Positions 9,350 through 16,465 of a DNA stretch of 64,000 bases are shown one piece after another; positions within the stretch are counted from its first letter, which is position 1, and every line of letters begins with the position of its first letter. The stretch lies in the NCBI GenBank assembly GCA_002168225.1, contig NHBH01000001.1, forward strand, positions 93,955-157,954, in the 5' to 3' direction. Both the position numbers and the translations under genes were made by a program. The notes under the pieces are model-generated. The model worked only from the letters and a program-made list of their open reading frames with translations. It did no database searches and was not told the DNA's origin. The stretch is from Micavibrio sp. TMED2. Lineage in GTDB: Bacteria; Pseudomonadota; Alphaproteobacteria; TMED2.

Positions 9350-11839
9350 ATGGTGCAGTTTTCAGTCCGCAATCGGGCAACCATTGATGAACCCCGCCTT
9401 CCGCTGTTGCCACCGGCATTGGTGGCGCATCTGAAACGCCTCGGCGTCTGGGTTCAGGGGCTGGTGATCATGCTGTTCGGCCTGGCGCTGGTATTGGCAC
9501 TGTTCAGCTACAATCCCAATGACCCGTCGATCAACACTTCAGTCAGCGATAATGGCAATGCCGCGCTGGCAATCCAGAACTGGCTCGGCGGCTTCGGTGC
9601 CCTGATTGCCGATCTGGCGATGCAGTGGCTGGGTGCAGCGGCGAGCTGGATGGTCGGCCTCGGCATTATCGTTGCCGGTTTCCGCCATATCCGCCGCAAG
9701 CCGGAGACCCCGTCACGCATGGCGCTGGTGCTGCCGCTGTTTACCGTGCTGGCACTGCTGACCGCGATTGGCGTGGCGCTCATGGAACCGGCTGAGCTGA
9801 TCTCCTCGCGCAGCCTGTCACTGGGCGCACCATGGCAGGTTGTCGCCGCCAGTATCGCACCATTTGTCAATGGCCTGCTCGGTGGCTACGGTCTTACCGG
9901 CCTTGCCATCCTCATGACCCTGATCGGTGTTGTCGGCTTTGTCGGTCTGCTCGGCTTCCGCCATCATCATCTGGCCTATCTGCAGCCGGTTCTTGGCGGT
10001 ATCGGCAGTGCCGGTGCCGGTATCATCAGCCGCTTCCGCCGCCCGGACCGCGACGAGGCAGACGCGGAAGCGCAGGACGATGCCGATGCCGACACCTGCA
10101 TGGATATCGACCACGATGAGGACATGGTTGAGGAACCGGCAGCCACCAGCCCGCGCGGCCCACGGCTCGACCTGCCCGGCAAGAAGCCTGCCGCTATCGA
10201 AATCGACGCCAATGAAGCGCCCAAACGTCAGGCAAAAGCACGTCAGACCGCCCAGCCGAGCCTTGGCCTGAAAGGCAGTGGCAACAGCGGCAACAACAGT
10301 AACAGCGATTATGAGGAACCGTCGCTGTCCCTGCTCTATGCCCCGACCGCTGAGGAACTCGCCGACCAGCCGACCGAGGATGCGCTGCAGGCCAATGCCG
10401 GTCTGCTTGAAGGTGTGCTCGCCGATTTCAGTGTGAAGGGCGAGATCCAGAAGGTACGCCCCGGCCCGGTGGTCACGCTCTATGAGCTGGAACCGGCCCC
10501 CGGCACCAAATCCCAGCGGGTTATCGGCATCGCCGATGATATTGCCCGCTCCATGTCGGCCATTTCCGCCCGTGTCGCGGTGGTGCCCGGCAAGAACGCC
10601 ATTGGTATCGAGCTGCCGAACGAGACGCGCCAGACCGTCTGGCTGCACGAAGTCCTCGCCGACCGCAGCTATCAGGGCACCAAATGCAAGCTGCCACTGG
10701 CGCTTGGCAAGGATATCGGCGGCGCGCCGGTTATTGCCGACCTCGCGCGTATGCCGCACCTGCTGGTCGCCGGTACCACCGGTTCCGGTAAGTCGGTCGC
10801 GGTCAACACCATGATCCTGTCCCTGCTCTACAAGCTGTCGCCGGAGCAGTGCCGCTTCATCATGATCGACCCGAAGATGCTGGAACTCTCCATCTATGGC
10901 GATATTCCGCATCTGCTCTGCCCGGTCGTGACCGAGCCGAAGAAAGCCGTGGTCGCGCTCAAATGGGTGGTGCGCGAGATGGAGGACCGCTATCGCGCCA
11001 TGTCCAAGCTGTCGGTGCGCAATATCGACGGCTATAACCAGCGCGTGACCGAAGCCCGCAAGAAGGGCGAGGTGCTGACCCGCAAGGTACAGACCGGCTT
11101 TGACCCCGATACCGGCAAACCGGTGATCGAAGAGGAACCAATCGCCCTCGACGAGCTGCCCTATATCGTCGTGATCGTCGACGAATTTGCCGACCTGATG
11201 CTGGTCGCAGGCAAGGAGATCGAGGCGGCGATCCAGCGTCTGGCCCAGATGGCCCGTGCCGCCGGTATCCATCTGATCATGGCAACCCAGCGCCCATCGG
11301 TCGACGTGATCACCGGTACCATCAAGGCGAACTTCCCGACCCGGATTTCCTTCGCGGTCACGTCCAAGATCGACAGCCGCACCATCCTCGGCGAGCAGGG
11401 TGCGGAACAGCTGCTCGGTATGGGCGATATGCTCTACATGGCGGCCGGTGGCCGGATCAACCGGGTCCATGGCCCGTTCGTCAAGGATGAAGAGGTCGAG
11501 GCCATCGTGAAGCATCTGAAGATGCTCGGCCCGGCTGATTACATCGATGCGGTTACCGATGACAGCGGTTTCGAGGACAGTGAAATGCTCGCCGCCGCCA
11601 TCGGTGAGGGCAGCGGCGGTGATGATGGCAACAGCGGTGACGAGCTGTTCGACCGCGCGGTTGACCTCGTCGCCCGTGAGCGCAAGGCATCAACCAGCTT
11701 TATCCAGCGTCATTTGCAGATCGGCTACAACCGTGCCGCGCGGATCATCGAGGATATGGAAAAACAGGGCATGGTCTCTGCCGCCAACCATGTGGGCAAA
11801 CGCGACGTCCTCCTCCCCGATCGCCGGGGCGAGGAATAG
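9350..11839 (+). CDS. ftsK: DNA translocase FtsK
   Basis: N-terminal TM helices, linker, [14 protein letters not shown] Walker [10 protein letters not shown] Walker B, gamma domain [14 protein letters not shown] 9350 preferred over 9212. Confidence 0.97.
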
Positions 11840-11846
11840 GCGCGGG

Positions 11847-12272
11847 TCAGCGCGGCGGTTTGCGGGTTTCGGTGGGGCGTGGATCGCCGATGGCACGACG
11901 CGGTGCGGTGCGGCGATCGCCATCACGGTTACTGAGGTCAACCAGACTGCGCGGCCCTGATGGCAGGGACATTAGCGGCAGTTGCGGGATCTGCCCGGCA
12001 TTGCCGCCGCCCAATGGCCGACCAGCAGCCCAGTCGGCCACTGCATGATCGGCATCACCGCCCTTGCGCACCTGTTCGATCAGCGAGCGGCGCTGTTTGG
12101 CACGATCACCGGCAAGCGAGATACCGGCGGTCGAGCCACGAAGCTGGATCCGGCGGGCGAGATCGAGCATCTCCTCGGCGAAGAACTCCTCCGGCTTGCG
12201 ACCGGCAAGCTCAGCCGCTTCCTGAAGCGCCTGATGATCCTCATCCGATAATGTGATGGTCAGCTTTTTCAT
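11847..12272 (-). CDS. RHH / DUF1778 (TacA-like) antitoxin-like protein, copy B with C-terminal extension
   Basis: MKKLTITLSDEDHQALQEAAELAGRKPEEF is an RHH-type strand-helix-helix; paralog of 13191-13469. Confidence 0.65.
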   Translation of the reverse strand: MKKLTITLSDEDHQALQEAAELAGRKPEEFFAEEMLDLARRIQLRGSTAGISLAGDRAKQRRSLIEQVRKGGDADHAVADWAAGRPLGGGNAGQIPQLPLMSLPSGPRSLVDLSNRDGDRRTAPRRAIGDPRPTETRKPPR

Positions 12273-12385
12273 TCAGCTATTCATGCGTGGGGTGGGAGAG
12301 TATCGAAAGCCTTACCCGTGACCGGGGACAATCTGGTTGATACCCATACTATCCGAAAGACAACACAACAGAAATAGCATCCCGG

Positions 12386-13084
12386 TTAAAGTTTGCGGAC
12401 AATACTTGGCCCGGCCTGCTCTGTCTTTGCTTCCTGGGTCACCTCTGCCGTCGCGGCGGTTTTGGCCTGATGGGCGGCACGCCAGCCTCCCAGATCGACC
12501 ACATGCTGCTTGGCAGCCATCTTGTCCAGCGCCGGGCCGATATCGTCCCGCTTGATCGCCATGGTCCAGCTTTCCTTGTCGGCCTGATCCACGGTCGGGC
12601 TGCTCTCGAATTGCGCGTTGCCATAGAGCTTGCGCAGATGTCCCTGATTGTCCTGCGGATCAATGGTCATGCCGTCGATCTGCTGACCCATTCCCTTGGC
12701 GCGGTGCATGGCCGAGGCGAGCAGGGCACTGCCCAGCCCCTTGCCGGCATATTTCTCATCGACACCCATCTGGGCCACGAGGAAACCCTTGGCATCGCGG
12801 CCCTCAACACCGAGCAGCTCGGCAGGCGCGCTGCCTTCCCGGTATTCGGCACCCGGCACCATGGTCACATAGCCGAGAATTTCCGGTTTGGTTTTCGATT
12901 GGTCTGGATTGTCCCGGACCGCGACGAAGGTGATGCTGTCACCGCGTGTTGCGGATTGTCTGGCGGTCTTTTTCAGCCAGTTGTCGATCCGGTCATTGCC
13001 AGATGAGAAACCCTCGCGATCATGCTTTTTCGAGAGCTCTTCATACCTTATTTCACTAACGTCAAACCCTTTGGGATCGACCAT
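12386..13084 (-). CDS. GNAT acetyltransferase, TacT/AtaT toxin-like
   Basis: HDREGFSSGNDRIDNWLKKTARQ N-terminal signature of GNAT toxins; ILGYVT; acetyl-CoA motif GVDEKYAGKGLGSALL. Confidence 0.8.
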   Translation of the reverse strand: MVDPKGFDVSEIRYEELSKKHDREGFSSGNDRIDNWLKKTARQSATRGDSITFVAVRDNPDQSKTKPEILGYVTMVPGAEYREGSAPAELLGVEGRDAKGFLVAQMGVDEKYAGKGLGSALLASAMHRAKGMGQQIDGMTIDPQDNQGHLRKLYGNAQFESSPTVDQADKESWTMAIKRDDIGPALDKMAAKQHVVDLGGWRAAHQAKTAATAEVTQEAKTEQAGPSIVRKL

Positions 13085-13190
13085 AAATTACCCCATATCC
13101 CTTGTTCCCTTTAACAAGAGTACCCGACGGGGTTTGAATCACAAGATTTTTTAGTCAAAAAATTTTACCAAAAGCGGCTTATTCAGCCGT

Positions 13191-13469
13191 CTATTCCTTT
13201 GTATCCAGATCAGGATTGGCGCGCGCCCAGTCCTGAATGGCGGTATCGCCCTCACCGGCCCGGCGCACCGCATCGAGCAAAGCGCGGTTTTTTGACTGAC
13301 GGTGCCGGTCGAGCTTCACCGCCGACAGATTGCCGTGCAGGTTGATGATCCGGGCCAGCGAGAGGATTTCCTCAAGGATAAAATCATCAATGTCGCGCTC
13401 GGCAATCTTCGCCGCCGCCTCCAGATCTTCGTACTCGTCATCATCGAGCTCGAGGGCAATGTTCTTCAT
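13191..13469 (-). CDS. RHH / DUF1778 (TacA-like) antitoxin-like protein, copy A
   Basis: 92 aa, acidic; MKNIALELDDDEYEDLEAAAKIAERDIDDFILEE; directly upstream of the GNAT gene. Confidence 0.68.
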   Translation of the reverse strand: MKNIALELDDDEYEDLEAAAKIAERDIDDFILEEILSLARIINLHGNLSAVKLDRHRQSKNRALLDAVRRAGEGDTAIQDWARANPDLDTKE

Positions 13470-13515: not shown

Positions 13516-13809
13516 TCAGTCCTGCTTCTCTTCACCCTCTTCCATCGGCATGTCGCCGGGATAGGGGTATTTGCGCGCCCAGTCCAGATCGGCATCGGAA
13601 AGACGGACACAGTTGAAGACCACCGCCTTCTTGTCGATCGCCTCCTGTGCATCCGGCCAGCGCTCGACCTCGATTGCGATCCGGCGGTTCAGTTCAGTCT
13701 CACAGGCCTCAAGCGAGGTAAAGGCAGAGGGTTCGCCTGCCCAATGTTCCATCTGCGGGCCTGTAAGAAAATTCGACGCAACGACCAGAATAACAAAGAT
13801 ATCAAGCAT
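13516..13809 (-). CDS. Small hypothetical exported protein with two cysteines
   Basis: Hydrophobic N-terminus MLDIFVILVVA; LEACE...FNCV pair. Confidence 0.55.
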   Translation of the reverse strand: MLDIFVILVVASNFLTGPQMEHWAGEPSAFTSLEACETELNRRIAIEVERWPDAQEAIDKKAVVFNCVRLSDADLDWARKYPYPGDMPMEEGEEKQD

Positions 13810-13984
13810 TTCACTTTCCCCGCCTGTGATGCAGCATCCAAGATACCGTGTGAAAATCCGGGTAAAGTGTAGCTGCAATCAGTTTCAACACAAGCATAAC
13901 CGGCTGACCGGATATGTCCGGCACGCAGTTTTATAGGCGGCAGCCCTGTTTTTTTGCGGCGCAACAGGGTATGAAAGCGCGCGC

Positions 13985-14034
13985 CTGTCAGTGACGGGCA
14001 ATCCTCATGACAATCGGCTTACCGTAACTGGCAG
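13985..14034 (+). ncRNA. Structured 5' leader hairpin, candidate sul1 RNA motif
   Basis: CTGTCAGT-G-ACGG pairs with CCGT-A-ACTGGCAG (one G-U pair) and ends 7 nt before the SulP ATG. sul1 RNAs are described upstream of SulP genes in Alphaproteobacteria; no covariance search was run. Confidence 0.5.
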
Positions 14035-14041
14035 TACCGCC

Positions 14042-15526
14042 ATGGATTTTTACACGACCTATCGCGACCAGTGGTTCGGCAATGTCCGCCGCGATCTTCT
14101 TTCCGGCCTCGTTGTGGCACTGGCCCTGATCCCGGAAGCAATCGCCTTCTCGATCATCGCCGGGGTTGACCCCAAGGTCGGGCTCTATGCATCGTTCTCC
14201 ATCGCGGTGATCACGGCGATTACCGGCGGACGTCCGGGCATGATTTCTGCCGCCACCGCCGCGACGGCGGTTCTCATGGTCACGCTGGTCAAGGAATACG
14301 GCCTAGAGTACCTGCTGGCCGCCACCATTCTGGCCGGGGTGTTGCAGGTTGCCGCTGGGTTGTTGCGACTGGGCGCCGTCATGCGCTTTGTCTCGCGCTC
14401 GGTCATGACCGGCTTTGTAAACGCGCTCGCGATCCTGATTTTCATGGCCCAGCTGCCGGAACTGATCAATGTGACCTGGCTGACCTATGTGCTGGTCGCC
14501 GCCGGTCTCGCGATTATCTATCTGTTCCCCTATATCACCAAGGCGATCCCCTCGCCGTTGGTCTGCATCATCGTGCTGACCTCGCTCAGCGTGTATTTCG
14601 GCTTTGACGTGCGCACGGTGGGCGATATGGGCGAATTGCCATCGAGCTTCCCGGTGTTCCTGCTGCCGCAGGTGCCGTTCAACCTCGAAACCCTGATGAT
14701 CATCCTGCCCTATTCCGCCGCCGTTGCCGCAGTCGGTCTGCTCGAGAGCCTGATGACCCAGAACCTCGTCGATGACCTCACCGACACCACTAGCAGCAAG
14801 AATCAGGAGTGCATCGGTCAGGGTCTGGCCAATTTCGCCACCGGCTTTATCGGCGGCATGGCCGGTTGCGCCATGATCGGCCAGTCCATGATCAACGTGA
14901 AGTCAGGCGGTCGCGGTCGTCTGTCCTGCTTCATTGCCGGGGTGCTGCTGCTGTTCCTGATCGTGGTGATGGGCGATCTGGTTGCCCGCATCCCGATGCC
15001 GGCGCTGGTCGCGATCATGATCATGGTTTCGGTCGGTACCTTCAGCTGGTCCTCGATCAAGAACCTGCGCGAGCATCCCCGCTCTTCCTCCATCGTCATG
15101 GTCGCCACCGTTGTCGGTGTCGTCCTGACCCACAATCTGGCCATCGGCGTGCTGATCGGTGTCCTGCTCTCGGCGATCTTCTTCGCCTGGAAAATCGCCC
15201 AGATCATGCGCGTGTCTTCGACCCTGTCCGAGGATGGCAAGTCACGTACCTATGTGGTCGAGGGTCAGGTGTTCTTCGCCTCAGCCGAGGCCTTCACCGC
15301 CGCCTTTGATTTCAAGGAAGCGCTGGAGCAGGTCACCATCGATGTCAGCCGGGCGCATATCTGGGATATTTCCAGCGTTGCCGCCCTTGATATGATCGTC
15401 CTGAAATTCCGCCGGGATGGTGCACAGGTCGAATTGATCGGCCTGAACAAAGCCAGCGAAACTATCGTCGACAAACTTGCCATCCATGATAAACCCGGTG
15501 CAATGGACGCATTGCTGAACCACTAG
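14042..15526 (+). CDS. SulP family anion permease with STAS domain
   Basis: [33 protein letters not shown]-terminal STAS (GQVFFAS...[10 protein letters not shown]). Confidence 0.93.
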
Positions 15527-15565
15527 AACAACAAGGCATCAAGCCGCCGATCCCGCCCGAAGGAA

Positions 15566-16465
15566 ATGCCCGCCATGACCACAGCCACAACTACCGATAC
15601 CCCAGCCTATGCGCCGAAACTCGTGGTGTTTGTCGATGGCTCGGTCTATTCGCGCAGTGTCTGCGATCATGCCGCCTGGATTGCCAGACATACCGGTGCC
15701 TCGGTCGAGCTGTTGCATGTGATTGACCGGCGCAAGCTGGCAAGCCCACCGAGCGACCTCAGTGGCAGCATTTCCCTCGGTGCCCGTTCTGCGCTGCTGG
15801 AGGAACTCTCCAACCTTGACGAGCAACGCTCACGCCTCGCCCAGCTCCATGGCCGCGCGATCCTTGAGGATGCGAAGGCGGTGATGGATGAGGCCGGTAT
15901 CGAGAACGTCTCCACCAAGCTGCGGATCGAGGATGTGGTCGAGGCGGTTACCGAAACCGAAGCCGATGCCGACCTGCTGGTGATTGGCAAGCGCGGTGAG
16001 GCAGCCGATTTCGCCAAGCTGCATCTGGGTTCAAATCTCGAACGCATCGCCCGGCACAGCAAGAAGCCGGTCTTTGTCGCATCCCGCGCCTTCAAACCGG
16101 TCAAGCGCTGCCTGATTGCCTATGATGGTGGACCAAGTGCCATGAAGGCAGTGGACCATATCGGTCGCTCCAAGCTCTTCGCCAATCTCGAATGTCACAT
16201 CCTGATCGTTGGCGAGGACAGCAAACAGAACCAGCAGCGTCTCGCCGACGCCAAGGCACTGATCGAGGCCGGTGGCCACAAGGCGAGCGGCGAGATCATC
16301 CCCGGCATCCCGGACAAGACCATTGCCCGCGTTGTCGATGAGCAGGGTTTCGACCTGCTGGTCATGGGCGCCTATGGCCATTCCCGCATCCGTAACCTGC
16401 TGATCGGATCGACCACCACGGAAATGATCCGCGCCTGCCTCGTGCCGGTCCTGCTGTTCCGCTAA
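15566..16465 (+). CDS. Universal stress protein (two USP domains)
   Basis: VFVDGS...DLLVIGKRG...LGSNLE; IAYDGG...LLVMGAYGHSRIRNLLIGSTT. Confidence 0.92.
   Translation: MPAMTTATTTDTPAYAPKLVVFVDGSVYSRSVCDHAAWIARHTGASVELLHVIDRRKLASPPSDLSGSISLGARSALLEELSNLDEQRSRLAQLHGRAILEDAKAVMDEAGIENVSTKLRIEDVVEAVTETEADADLLVIGKRGEAADFAKLHLGSNLERIARHSKKPVFVASRAFKPVKRCLIAYDGGPSAMKAVDHIGRSKLFANLECHILIVGEDSKQNQQRLADAKALIEAGGHKASGEIIPGIPDKTIARVVDEQGFDLLVMGAYGHSRIRNLLIGSTTTEMIRACLVPVLLFR

Follow-up and report, generated by a model that had tools for sequence, protein, structure and literature searches.

The DNA analysed here (the window) is a stretch of 64,000 nucleotides (nt) from Micavibrio sp. TMED2 (contig NHBH01000001.1, positions 93,955 to 157,954). 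Three open reading frames (ORFs) stand in a row on its minus strand: gene A, encoding a small protein of 92 amino acids, gene T, encoding a GCN5-related N-acetyltransferase (GNAT) of 232 amino acids, and gene B, encoding a protein of 141 amino acids (Table 1). An earlier note, made from the letters of the window, had described this triplet as a GNAT flanked on the same strand by two paralogous genes, with gaps of about 110 bp. Both statements were borne out. A and B could be aligned by BLASTP without gaps over 86 residues with 32 identities (37%, E 2e-21), a similarity far beyond chance, and the distances calculated from the ORF coordinates are 106 nt between A and T and 113 nt between T and B. 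A convergent FtsK gene terminates at position 11839, its stop codon 8 nt away from the 3′ end of B. The neighbours in the window are housekeeping genes (FtsK, SulP, Usp, OpuA). Below we describe the three proteins, the conservation and transcription of the triplet and its reading as a toxin-antitoxin (TA) module; the observation itself is solid, the evidence for conservation is good and the functional reading is plausible.

The GNAT and the two small proteins

T matched the Pfam family Acetyltransf_1. Its best sequence matches in the Protein Data Bank (PDB) were TacT3 (6g96), AtaT2 (7f37), TacT (5fvj), TacT1 and TacT2 (7ak8, 7ak7), GmvT (9ilr) and KacT (5zgn, 5xun). The AlphaFold2 model of T, built from 81 sequences, had a predicted local distance difference test (pLDDT) score of 86 and a predicted template modelling (TM) score of 0.78. 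When PDB was searched with this model by Foldseek, ranks 1 to 38 were all occupied by GNAT toxins of TA systems (TacT1-3, KacT, AtaT, AtaT2, GmvT or the 'bacterial toxin' 7byy) with target-normalised TM scores of 0.74-0.86, after which the scores dropped sharply to those of generic GNATs (0.57-0.69).

The residues characteristic of the toxin class are present. In the alignment of 81 sequences T holds all positions that are at least 90% conserved in the class (H21, F26, G29, A41, G116, G118, A125 and Y154). The N-terminal HDR..F..G signature is intact, and the acetyl-CoA loop, YAGKGLG at residues 112-118, is of the Q/R-x-x-G-x-G/A type. Tyr154 was aligned by phmmer with the Tyr of AtaT2; this is the position of the tyrosine mutated in the AtaT Y144F and KacT Y145F structures. 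As in known systems of this class, a small gene whose product resembles ribbon-helix-helix (RHH) proteins, gene A, lies directly upstream on the same strand, but here separated by the 106-nt gap. By every sequence and fold criterion applied, T is a member of the TacT/AtaT/KacT class, in agreement with the earlier note. By analogy with the class, T most likely acetylates the amino group of aminoacyl-tRNA and thereby blocks translation.

T is longer than its relatives of 160-180 residues, and B continues for 55 residues past the region shared with A. The C-terminal extensions suspected on both proteins are thus real, with the qualification that part of what had been counted as extension on T is probably canonical. 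The strand at residues 175-178 and the helix at 179-192 probably represent the last strand and the short helix of the class, a reading taken from the model and the class consensus, not from residue-level superposition. This leaves about residues 195-232 as the subfamily-specific part, in which a GWR motif is conserved and residues 201-222 are predicted to form a long helix.

An exhaustive HMMER scan of 1.84 billion representative proteins with T yielded one other cluster with more than 50% identity (P0003); all other matches were proteins of 160-180 residues with 27-42% identity. Word-indexed searches with T and A returned only near-identical copies, and scans of genome, metagenome and viral contigs with the alignment patterns of T, A and B detected no further family members; the joint alignment of A and B proved too divergent for scans of this kind. 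Members of the T/A/B family are rare and come from a narrow marine clade only.

The assignment of A and B is less straightforward. Both scored below the cut-off of the Pfam family TacA1 (PF08681; 21 bits), A with 17.9 bits (E 0.003) and B with 17.3 bits. Four of eight A/B family members matched TacA1 (best E 0.0025), and three of the eight matched ParD. Other weak matches were to HP0222, ParD and AtaR in PDB and to NikA and RHH_1. All these weak matches, whether from Pfam, PDB or hhalign, are to RHH proteins; they start at residue 1-3 and stop by about residue 40-48. When A and B were compared by hhalign with the TacA1 antitoxins of canonical relatives, 38 N-terminal columns aligned with a probability of 6%, and over the C-terminal, toxin-binding half none of the Pfam, PDB and hhalign comparisons revealed homology to DUF1778/TacA1. 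A model of B from a run with three sequences was weak (pLDDT 54). It predicts an extended segment (residues 1-9), four helices (10-23, 27-45, 53-69 and 74-82) and a disordered tail from residue 86. A fold search with this weak model gave no significant match; AtaR, TacA2 and classic RHH proteins headed the list.

These comparisons suggest that the N-terminus of A and B is RHH-like and that the overall predicted architecture is antitoxin-like. Of the earlier description of the two proteins as RHH antitoxin-like paralogs, the paralogy and the RHH-like N-terminus, the latter with its weak in-register matches to TacA1, ParD, AtaR and HP0222 and the predicted helices, could be upheld. Membership in TacA/DUF1778 could not: by their sequences A and B are not members of that family, and the name 'TacA paralogs' would overstate the relationship. 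Their orthologues are called 'hypothetical protein' in public records, and A and B define a previously unannotated family of small proteins.

The two proteins differ in charge. In all four lineages in which the triplet was found (see below), the N-terminal 45 residues of A include only 3-4 Lys or Arg and sum to a net charge of about -10. The same 45-residue region of B has a charge of -3 to -5 with 7 Lys or Arg, and the tail of B adds +2 to +7. The B N-terminus, MKKLTITLSDED, contains the strand K-L-T-I-T-L, which we take to be close to the DNA-reading strand of CopG, and CopG (1ea4) was among the non-significant fold matches of the B model. A has a Glu at the third outward-facing position of the strand. 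The charges and strand residues suggest that B would be a better DNA binder than A.

The B tail of the window has an isoelectric point of 11.7, and pLDDT was below 50 for residues 86-140. Tails of this kind were present in all four lineages: they are 51-68 residues long, rich in Pro, Gly and Arg, have isoelectric points of 10.5-12 and share short motifs. The reading frame of the tail was kept in all lineages. Between the window and its close relative L002 the tails differ by 6.5 synonymous and 3.5 non-synonymous changes. GC content by codon position did not discriminate as a coding test for the tail. We also considered that the tail might be the remnant of a lost second toxin; no similarity was found in any frame, and the idea was abandoned.

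An A/B-type domain was also found outside the triplet. Plasmid sequences searched by tblastn contained one match, a protein encoded on plasmid pLA6_010 of Marinibacterium anthonyi (CP031595.1, 27833-28723; L012:3392-4282). This protein of 296 amino acids is annotated as 'RelA'. An alarmone-hydrolase-like HD_4 domain comes first and a complete A/B-type domain second, and the protein ends in a basic tail rich in Pro, Gly and Thr with RPKR as the last residues. All 13 residues invariant in A and B are kept in the fusion, and there is no GNAT gene nearby. The A/B-type domain is thus an autonomous module, not restricted to GNAT partners, and the invariant residues, including those of its C-terminal half (L53, R57, D75 and W81), cannot be read as a GNAT-binding surface. 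A Swt1-like HEPN gene adjoins the fusion gene in divergent orientation, and a cluster of near-identical fusion proteins is encoded on 41 Paracoccaceae contigs.

Table 1. Positions of the three genes and of neighbouring features in the window
Feature	Position	Strand	Evidence
Gene A, RHH-like small protein, upstream of T	13191..13469	-	ORF; sub-threshold TacA1 match; orthologues; dN/dS; charge; RNA contigs
Short GC hairpin with T-run, weakly terminator- or attenuator-like	13175..13189	-	terminator scan; paired changes in L002
Gene T, TacT/AtaT/KacT-class GNAT	12386..13084	-	PDB sequence matches; AlphaFold2 model; Foldseek; conserved residues; dN/dS
C-terminal extension of T, about residues 195-232, subfamily-specific	12386..12502	-	model; conserved in P0003, P0152 and P0153; absent from relatives of 160-180 amino acids
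T-B spacer, 113 nt; may hold a terminator and/or a promoter for B	12273..12385	-	spacers of relatives; L005 hairpin; X27 RNA depth
Core of gene B, residues 1-86, paralog of A	12015..12272	-	BLASTP; orthologues; B clade; dN/dS
Tail of gene B, residues 87-141, Pro/Gly/Arg-rich, basic, predicted disordered	11847..12014	-	pLDDT; tails in four lineages; substitution counts
orf97, hydrophobic N-terminus, 46 nt upstream of A	13516..13809	-	lineage-specific; RNA contigs join orf97 to start of A

Conservation and age of the triplet

Profile searching recovered three more GNATs, 46-53% identical to T. They are encoded in the metagenome-assembled genome 'Alphaproteobacteria bacterium SS10' (GCA_019192455.1; L004), in GCA_039027275.1 (L005) and on a Logan contig (L006). 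In each of the three the GNAT gene is preceded by a gene for 90-97 amino acids and followed by a gene for 122-155 amino acids, all on one strand and in the order A-T-B, with spacers of 77-153 nt (77-84 nt between T and B). The first small gene is the orthologue of A (51-54% identity), the third that of B (43-46%), and both the C-terminal toxin helix and the basic disordered B tail are shared. The check proposed in the earlier note, a search for the conserved gene order, thus located A-T-B in four marine alphaproteobacterial lineages, the window included. The genes outside the triplet vary. Beyond B stands FtsK in the window, Usp in L005 and L006 and an ArsR-type gene in L004, and the gene upstream of A also differs between the window and L004-L006. 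What is conserved, therefore, is A-T-B and no more. Canonical relatives, retrieved by the same route, proved to be two-gene TacA1-GNAT pairs whose genes overlap by 14 nt or stand 3 nt apart, so the spacers and the third gene of our triplet are genuine differences.

In a neighbour-joining tree the small proteins formed separate A and B clades with about 63% bootstrap support, and four positions distinguish the two groups (A/B): A18/E18, S37/D37, L48/T48 and N61/R61. Separate clades with fixed diagnostic positions indicate that the duplication predates the split of the four lineages. Ratios of non-synonymous to synonymous substitution rates (dN/dS), estimated by the Nei-Gojobori method, were 0-0.23 for A and 0.02-0.19 for T. 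For B they were 0.06-0.15 in most pairs for the core and 0.2-0.8 for the more relaxed tail. The ratios indicate that A, T and B are all under purifying selection.

The four genomes are related, with SulP 86% and Usp 78-98% identical. The A, T and B proteins, at 43-79% identity, diverge much faster than these neighbours. Fast divergence is common for TA loci. The SulP/STAS transporter gene (window 13991-16465, plus strand) and a universal stress protein gene (Usp) adjoin the module as a pair in all lineages, at its A end in the window but at its B end in L004-L006, which points to local rearrangement around the module. The exact locus of the window occurs in many marine metagenomes, and four runs from three studies dated 2014 and 2025 showed 0 differences.

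A tract of 415 nt (window about 12165-12580; alignment columns 1372-1787) had no differences between the window and L002, while the flanks differ by about 2-3%. It runs from the 3′ end of T through the T-B spacer into the 5′ end of B and is possibly a recent recombination tract. The 100% identity of the T-B spacer between the window and L002 was at one point considered a sign of constraint. This was rejected: the spacer lies inside the 415-nt tract, which also covers coding sequence, and recombination is more likely.

Three further observations concern T. Codon 148 (window 12641-12643) is Gly (GGA) in the window, Glu (GAA) in both Tara contigs and Asp in the sister lineages; it is the sole amino acid difference in T among close relatives. 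The toxins of the sister lineages (L004:6001-6792, L005:6001-6795, L006:4568-5359) begin with about 34 additional residues (MADKKKPD...); this N-terminal segment is conserved in these toxins and missing from the T of the window. On two short metagenome contigs (L007:1080-1355, L008:475-750) the coding sequence of a related GNAT (about 40% identity) is limited to the C-terminal 91 residues, with no recognisable N-terminal half upstream. They may carry a truncated remnant and are uninformative for the module.

Transcription and regulatory sequence

In five ocean metatranscriptome runs RNA contigs covered A, T and B. A was linked with T by a single contig in X27 (12431-13427), and T with B by one in X26 (11868-12905). 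The depth in X27 was about 60 for the A-T contig and 0 for B, and in X26 B was at least as deep as A, depth in assembled contigs being a poor measure of expression. The contigs are evidence, not proof, that the locus is transcribed and that B may be uncoupled. In X25 and X26 contigs joined orf97 to the first approximately 40 nt of A. Coverage ended near position 13860, about 50 nt upstream of the orf97 ATG, with none over the 5′ region of SulP, which speaks for a start site upstream of orf97 and makes DNA contamination less likely.

orf97 is possibly co-transcribed with A. It was tried as a fourth gene of the module and rejected: it matched no family, it has no homologue at the related loci, and in L004-L006 the gene at that place is on the other strand. 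The 'DWAR' likeness of orf97 to A is a short chance match. The conserved module does not include orf97.

Directly after the A stop codon there is a hairpin with a 5-bp GC stem and a T-run. In L002 two compensatory changes on opposite arms keep the stem, yet RNA contigs still read through it. A strong hairpin with a T-run follows the T stop codon in L005. RNA folding of the T-B spacer of the window was no better than that of shuffled sequences, no Rfam family matched, and a sigma-70 promoter scan gave nothing useful. The motif CTTTCG(G)ATAC, seen in the T-B spacer of the window and in the A-T spacers of L004-L006, was dropped when a comparison of all spacers placed it at chance level (E at least 0.25). 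The 100 nt upstream of A (L004:5480-5580, L005:5533-5633, L006:4114-4214) are 95% identical, although synonymous sites in the coding regions are saturated. This segment holds the palindromes CCCAGtgccCTGGG and TTGCCgtgacggaGGCAA. The latter overlaps the ribosome-binding site of A, which makes an operator or a leader likely.

Interpretation and comparison with known systems

GNAT toxins of this class are active as dimers, and four antitoxins (two RHH dimers) hold two toxin monomers apart (PMC6698736). In KacT-KacA2-KacA2-KacT the two protomers of each RHH dimer have different C-terminal conformations: one wraps the toxin, whereas the other is a long helix with its last 17 residues free, an asymmetry underlying conditional cooperativity (PMC6698736). 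We read the A-T-B triplet, with confidence evenly balanced between acceptance and doubt, as a chromosomal three-gene module of the type II TA kind in which A and B are non-redundant copies of one ancestral RHH antitoxin gene. Retention of both copies argues that they are not redundant. The two conformer roles of the antitoxin dimers in KacA4KacT2 and AtaR4AtaT2 would then be split between genes A and B, either in a T-(A·B)-(A·B)-T heteromer or in two homodimers with divided labour. A, with its canonical antitoxin length, very acidic N-domain and presence on the same RNA contig as T, would be the main neutraliser. B, with its CopG-like strand, more numerous basic residues and basic disordered tail, may serve DNA binding and regulation or act as a conditional second layer, and its expression may be uncoupled from A-T through the long T-B spacer. 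In this scheme we infer the toxicity of T, its neutralising partner, heterodimerisation and DNA binding.

A more specific version, which we put forward tentatively and consider rather unlikely as it stands, is that A and B form an obligate RHH heterodimer (T2A2B2), that is, that the antitoxin conformers have become genetically split, and that the B tail and the C-terminal helix of T co-evolved as a release control. Tail and helix would act as a tether, a degron or a nucleic-acid clamp that sets the release of the toxin. If this is true, A·B would be the first RHH antitoxin that is heteromeric, and the TA complex a natural case of symmetry breaking by duplication.

Several results weigh against reading the triplet as such a module. 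A and B fall below the TacA1 threshold and align with canonical TacA1 antitoxins over no more than about 38 RHH columns; B is poorly modelled (pLDDT 54), and the fold search with its model was without a significant match. Bootstrap support for the split between the A and B clades is only about 63%. The Marinibacterium fusion weakens the argument, drawn from the sequences, that both A and B must bind T. The RNA comes from unstranded assembled contigs, and a comparison of all spacers revealed no shared operator motif above chance. The stable housekeeping neighbourhood and seemingly vertical inheritance would also fit a non-toxic regulatory enzyme.

What most directly competes with the division of labour proposed for A and B is a canonical A-T pair with a largely redundant or differently timed B, in which each small protein neutralises T as a homodimer and B has its own promoter. 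The long T-B spacer, the terminator-like hairpin of L005 and the uncoupled RNA depth of B in X27 would agree with it, and there is precedent: both duplicated antitoxins neutralise SpoIISA (PMC4926146), and FaRel sits between two antitoxin genes (PMC11782079). However, pure redundancy rarely survives such divergence, both copies are under purifying selection in all four lineages, and A and B have fixed differences in charge, diagnostic residues and tail. We regard this alternative as unlikely, if worth keeping in view.

Alternatively, the locus may be no TA system at all: T would be a housekeeping or stress acetyltransferase with another substrate, protein or small molecule, its extra C-terminal helix serving a new substrate or partner, and A and B would be RHH transcription factors controlling it. 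A stable chromosomal region next to FtsK, Usp and SulP, with a neighbourhood common to related genomes, is what one would expect in that case. The lack of gene overlap, the subfamily-specific extensions of T, the fusion of an A/B-type domain to an unrelated enzyme and the absence of defence or phage links point the same way. Set against these are the closest relatives of T by sequence and fold, which are all TA toxins and clearly set off from other GNATs, the intact HDR..F..G signature and Tyr, the RHH gene directly upstream, a hallmark of TA arrangements, and a module that diverges much faster than its neighbours. On balance we think this explanation quite improbable.

Some TA systems act in defence, and the earlier note had raised a sensor-type defence TA, in which the B tail or the T helix would sense a phage product and release T. 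Only general points, fast evolution and unusual extensions, speak for it. With E values up to 0.1 allowed, none of A, T, B and orf97 matched a PADLOC model of a known or candidate defence protein, the only PHROG match was a generic acetyltransferase, no relatives were found on the viral contigs searched, and near the module there are housekeeping genes and no defence island or mobile-element genes. The locus was also identical in metagenomes from different studies and years. The suggestion is unsupported, and we hold it to be very improbable.

That one copy is decaying, a possibility the earlier note had also named, was ruled out by purifying selection on both copies and by the gene order kept in four lineages. 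The related idea that B is a decaying duplicate or its long ORF a read-through artefact into GC-rich intergenic DNA has in its favour a low-complexity, GC-rich tail with undiagnostic GC by codon position and a dN/dS above that of the core, but B is intact in all lineages and all contigs examined, its core dN/dS is low, similar tails with short shared motifs recur in the four lineages and the Marinibacterium fusion, synonymous changes exceed non-synonymous ones in the close pair and B is transcribed, so that this idea is largely refuted and extremely improbable.

A conserved, selected and expressed A-T-A′ arrangement would be a natural experiment on why an antitoxin dimer takes two conformations and on how neutralisation and autoregulation can separate. 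This ocean bacterium is abundant, and RNA contigs point to transcription of the locus in situ; the module may thus be relevant to how growth is controlled in marine populations. Until T is shown to be toxic, the practical impact is modest.

Among TA classes the GNAT-RHH systems have been studied well, and so far they are described as bicistronic. In the literature we came across no GNAT toxin with paralogous antitoxins on both sides, and 'AT-T-AT' arrangements are noted only generically in a survey of E. coli. T resembles the toxins of TacAT, AtaRT, KacAT and GmvAT in fold class, acetyl-CoA loop and Tyr at the catalytic position, and these systems too have a small RHH-like gene directly upstream. 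The predicted architecture of A and B over about 90 residues resembles that of KacA, in which a β-strand (β-A) is followed by four helices (α-A to α-D) (PMC6698736). The differences are several. TacAT-type pairs consist of two overlapping or abutting genes, whereas here there are three genes with spacers of 77-153 nt and a second, paralogous RHH gene downstream; A and B fail the TacA1/DUF1778 threshold and are without its C-terminal motif; and the toxin is lengthened by a C-terminal helix, B by a basic disordered tail.

SpoIISABC of Bacillus likewise has one toxin and two antitoxins that arose by gene duplication and were both retained (PMC4926146). There, however, the toxin is an unrelated membrane protein, the order is T-A-A′ instead of A-T-A′, and the antitoxins are not of the RHH type. 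The duplications in Bacillus were recent and independent; here we see a single old duplication common to all lineages.

In the faRel toxSAS module (aT2faRel-faRel-aTfaRel) antitoxin genes flank the toxin gene as in our triplet, a gene order reported to be highly uncommon (PMC11782079). FaRel, the toxin, is an alarmone synthetase, and the two antitoxins, one a binding antitoxin and the other an alarmone hydrolase, are mutually unrelated. The only link found between FaRel and the present family is the A/B-type domain fused to the alarmone-hydrolase-like HD protein of Marinibacterium.

The omega-epsilon-zeta and paaR-paaA-parE systems also comprise three genes, and in them regulation and neutralisation may be separate (PMC8138530). 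Their regulator is unrelated to the antitoxin and encoded upstream, and the antitoxin is without a DNA-binding domain. The triplet described here, with paralogous A and B that share an RHH-like N-terminus and with its extra gene downstream, does not belong to the omega-epsilon-zeta type with a dedicated upstream regulator.

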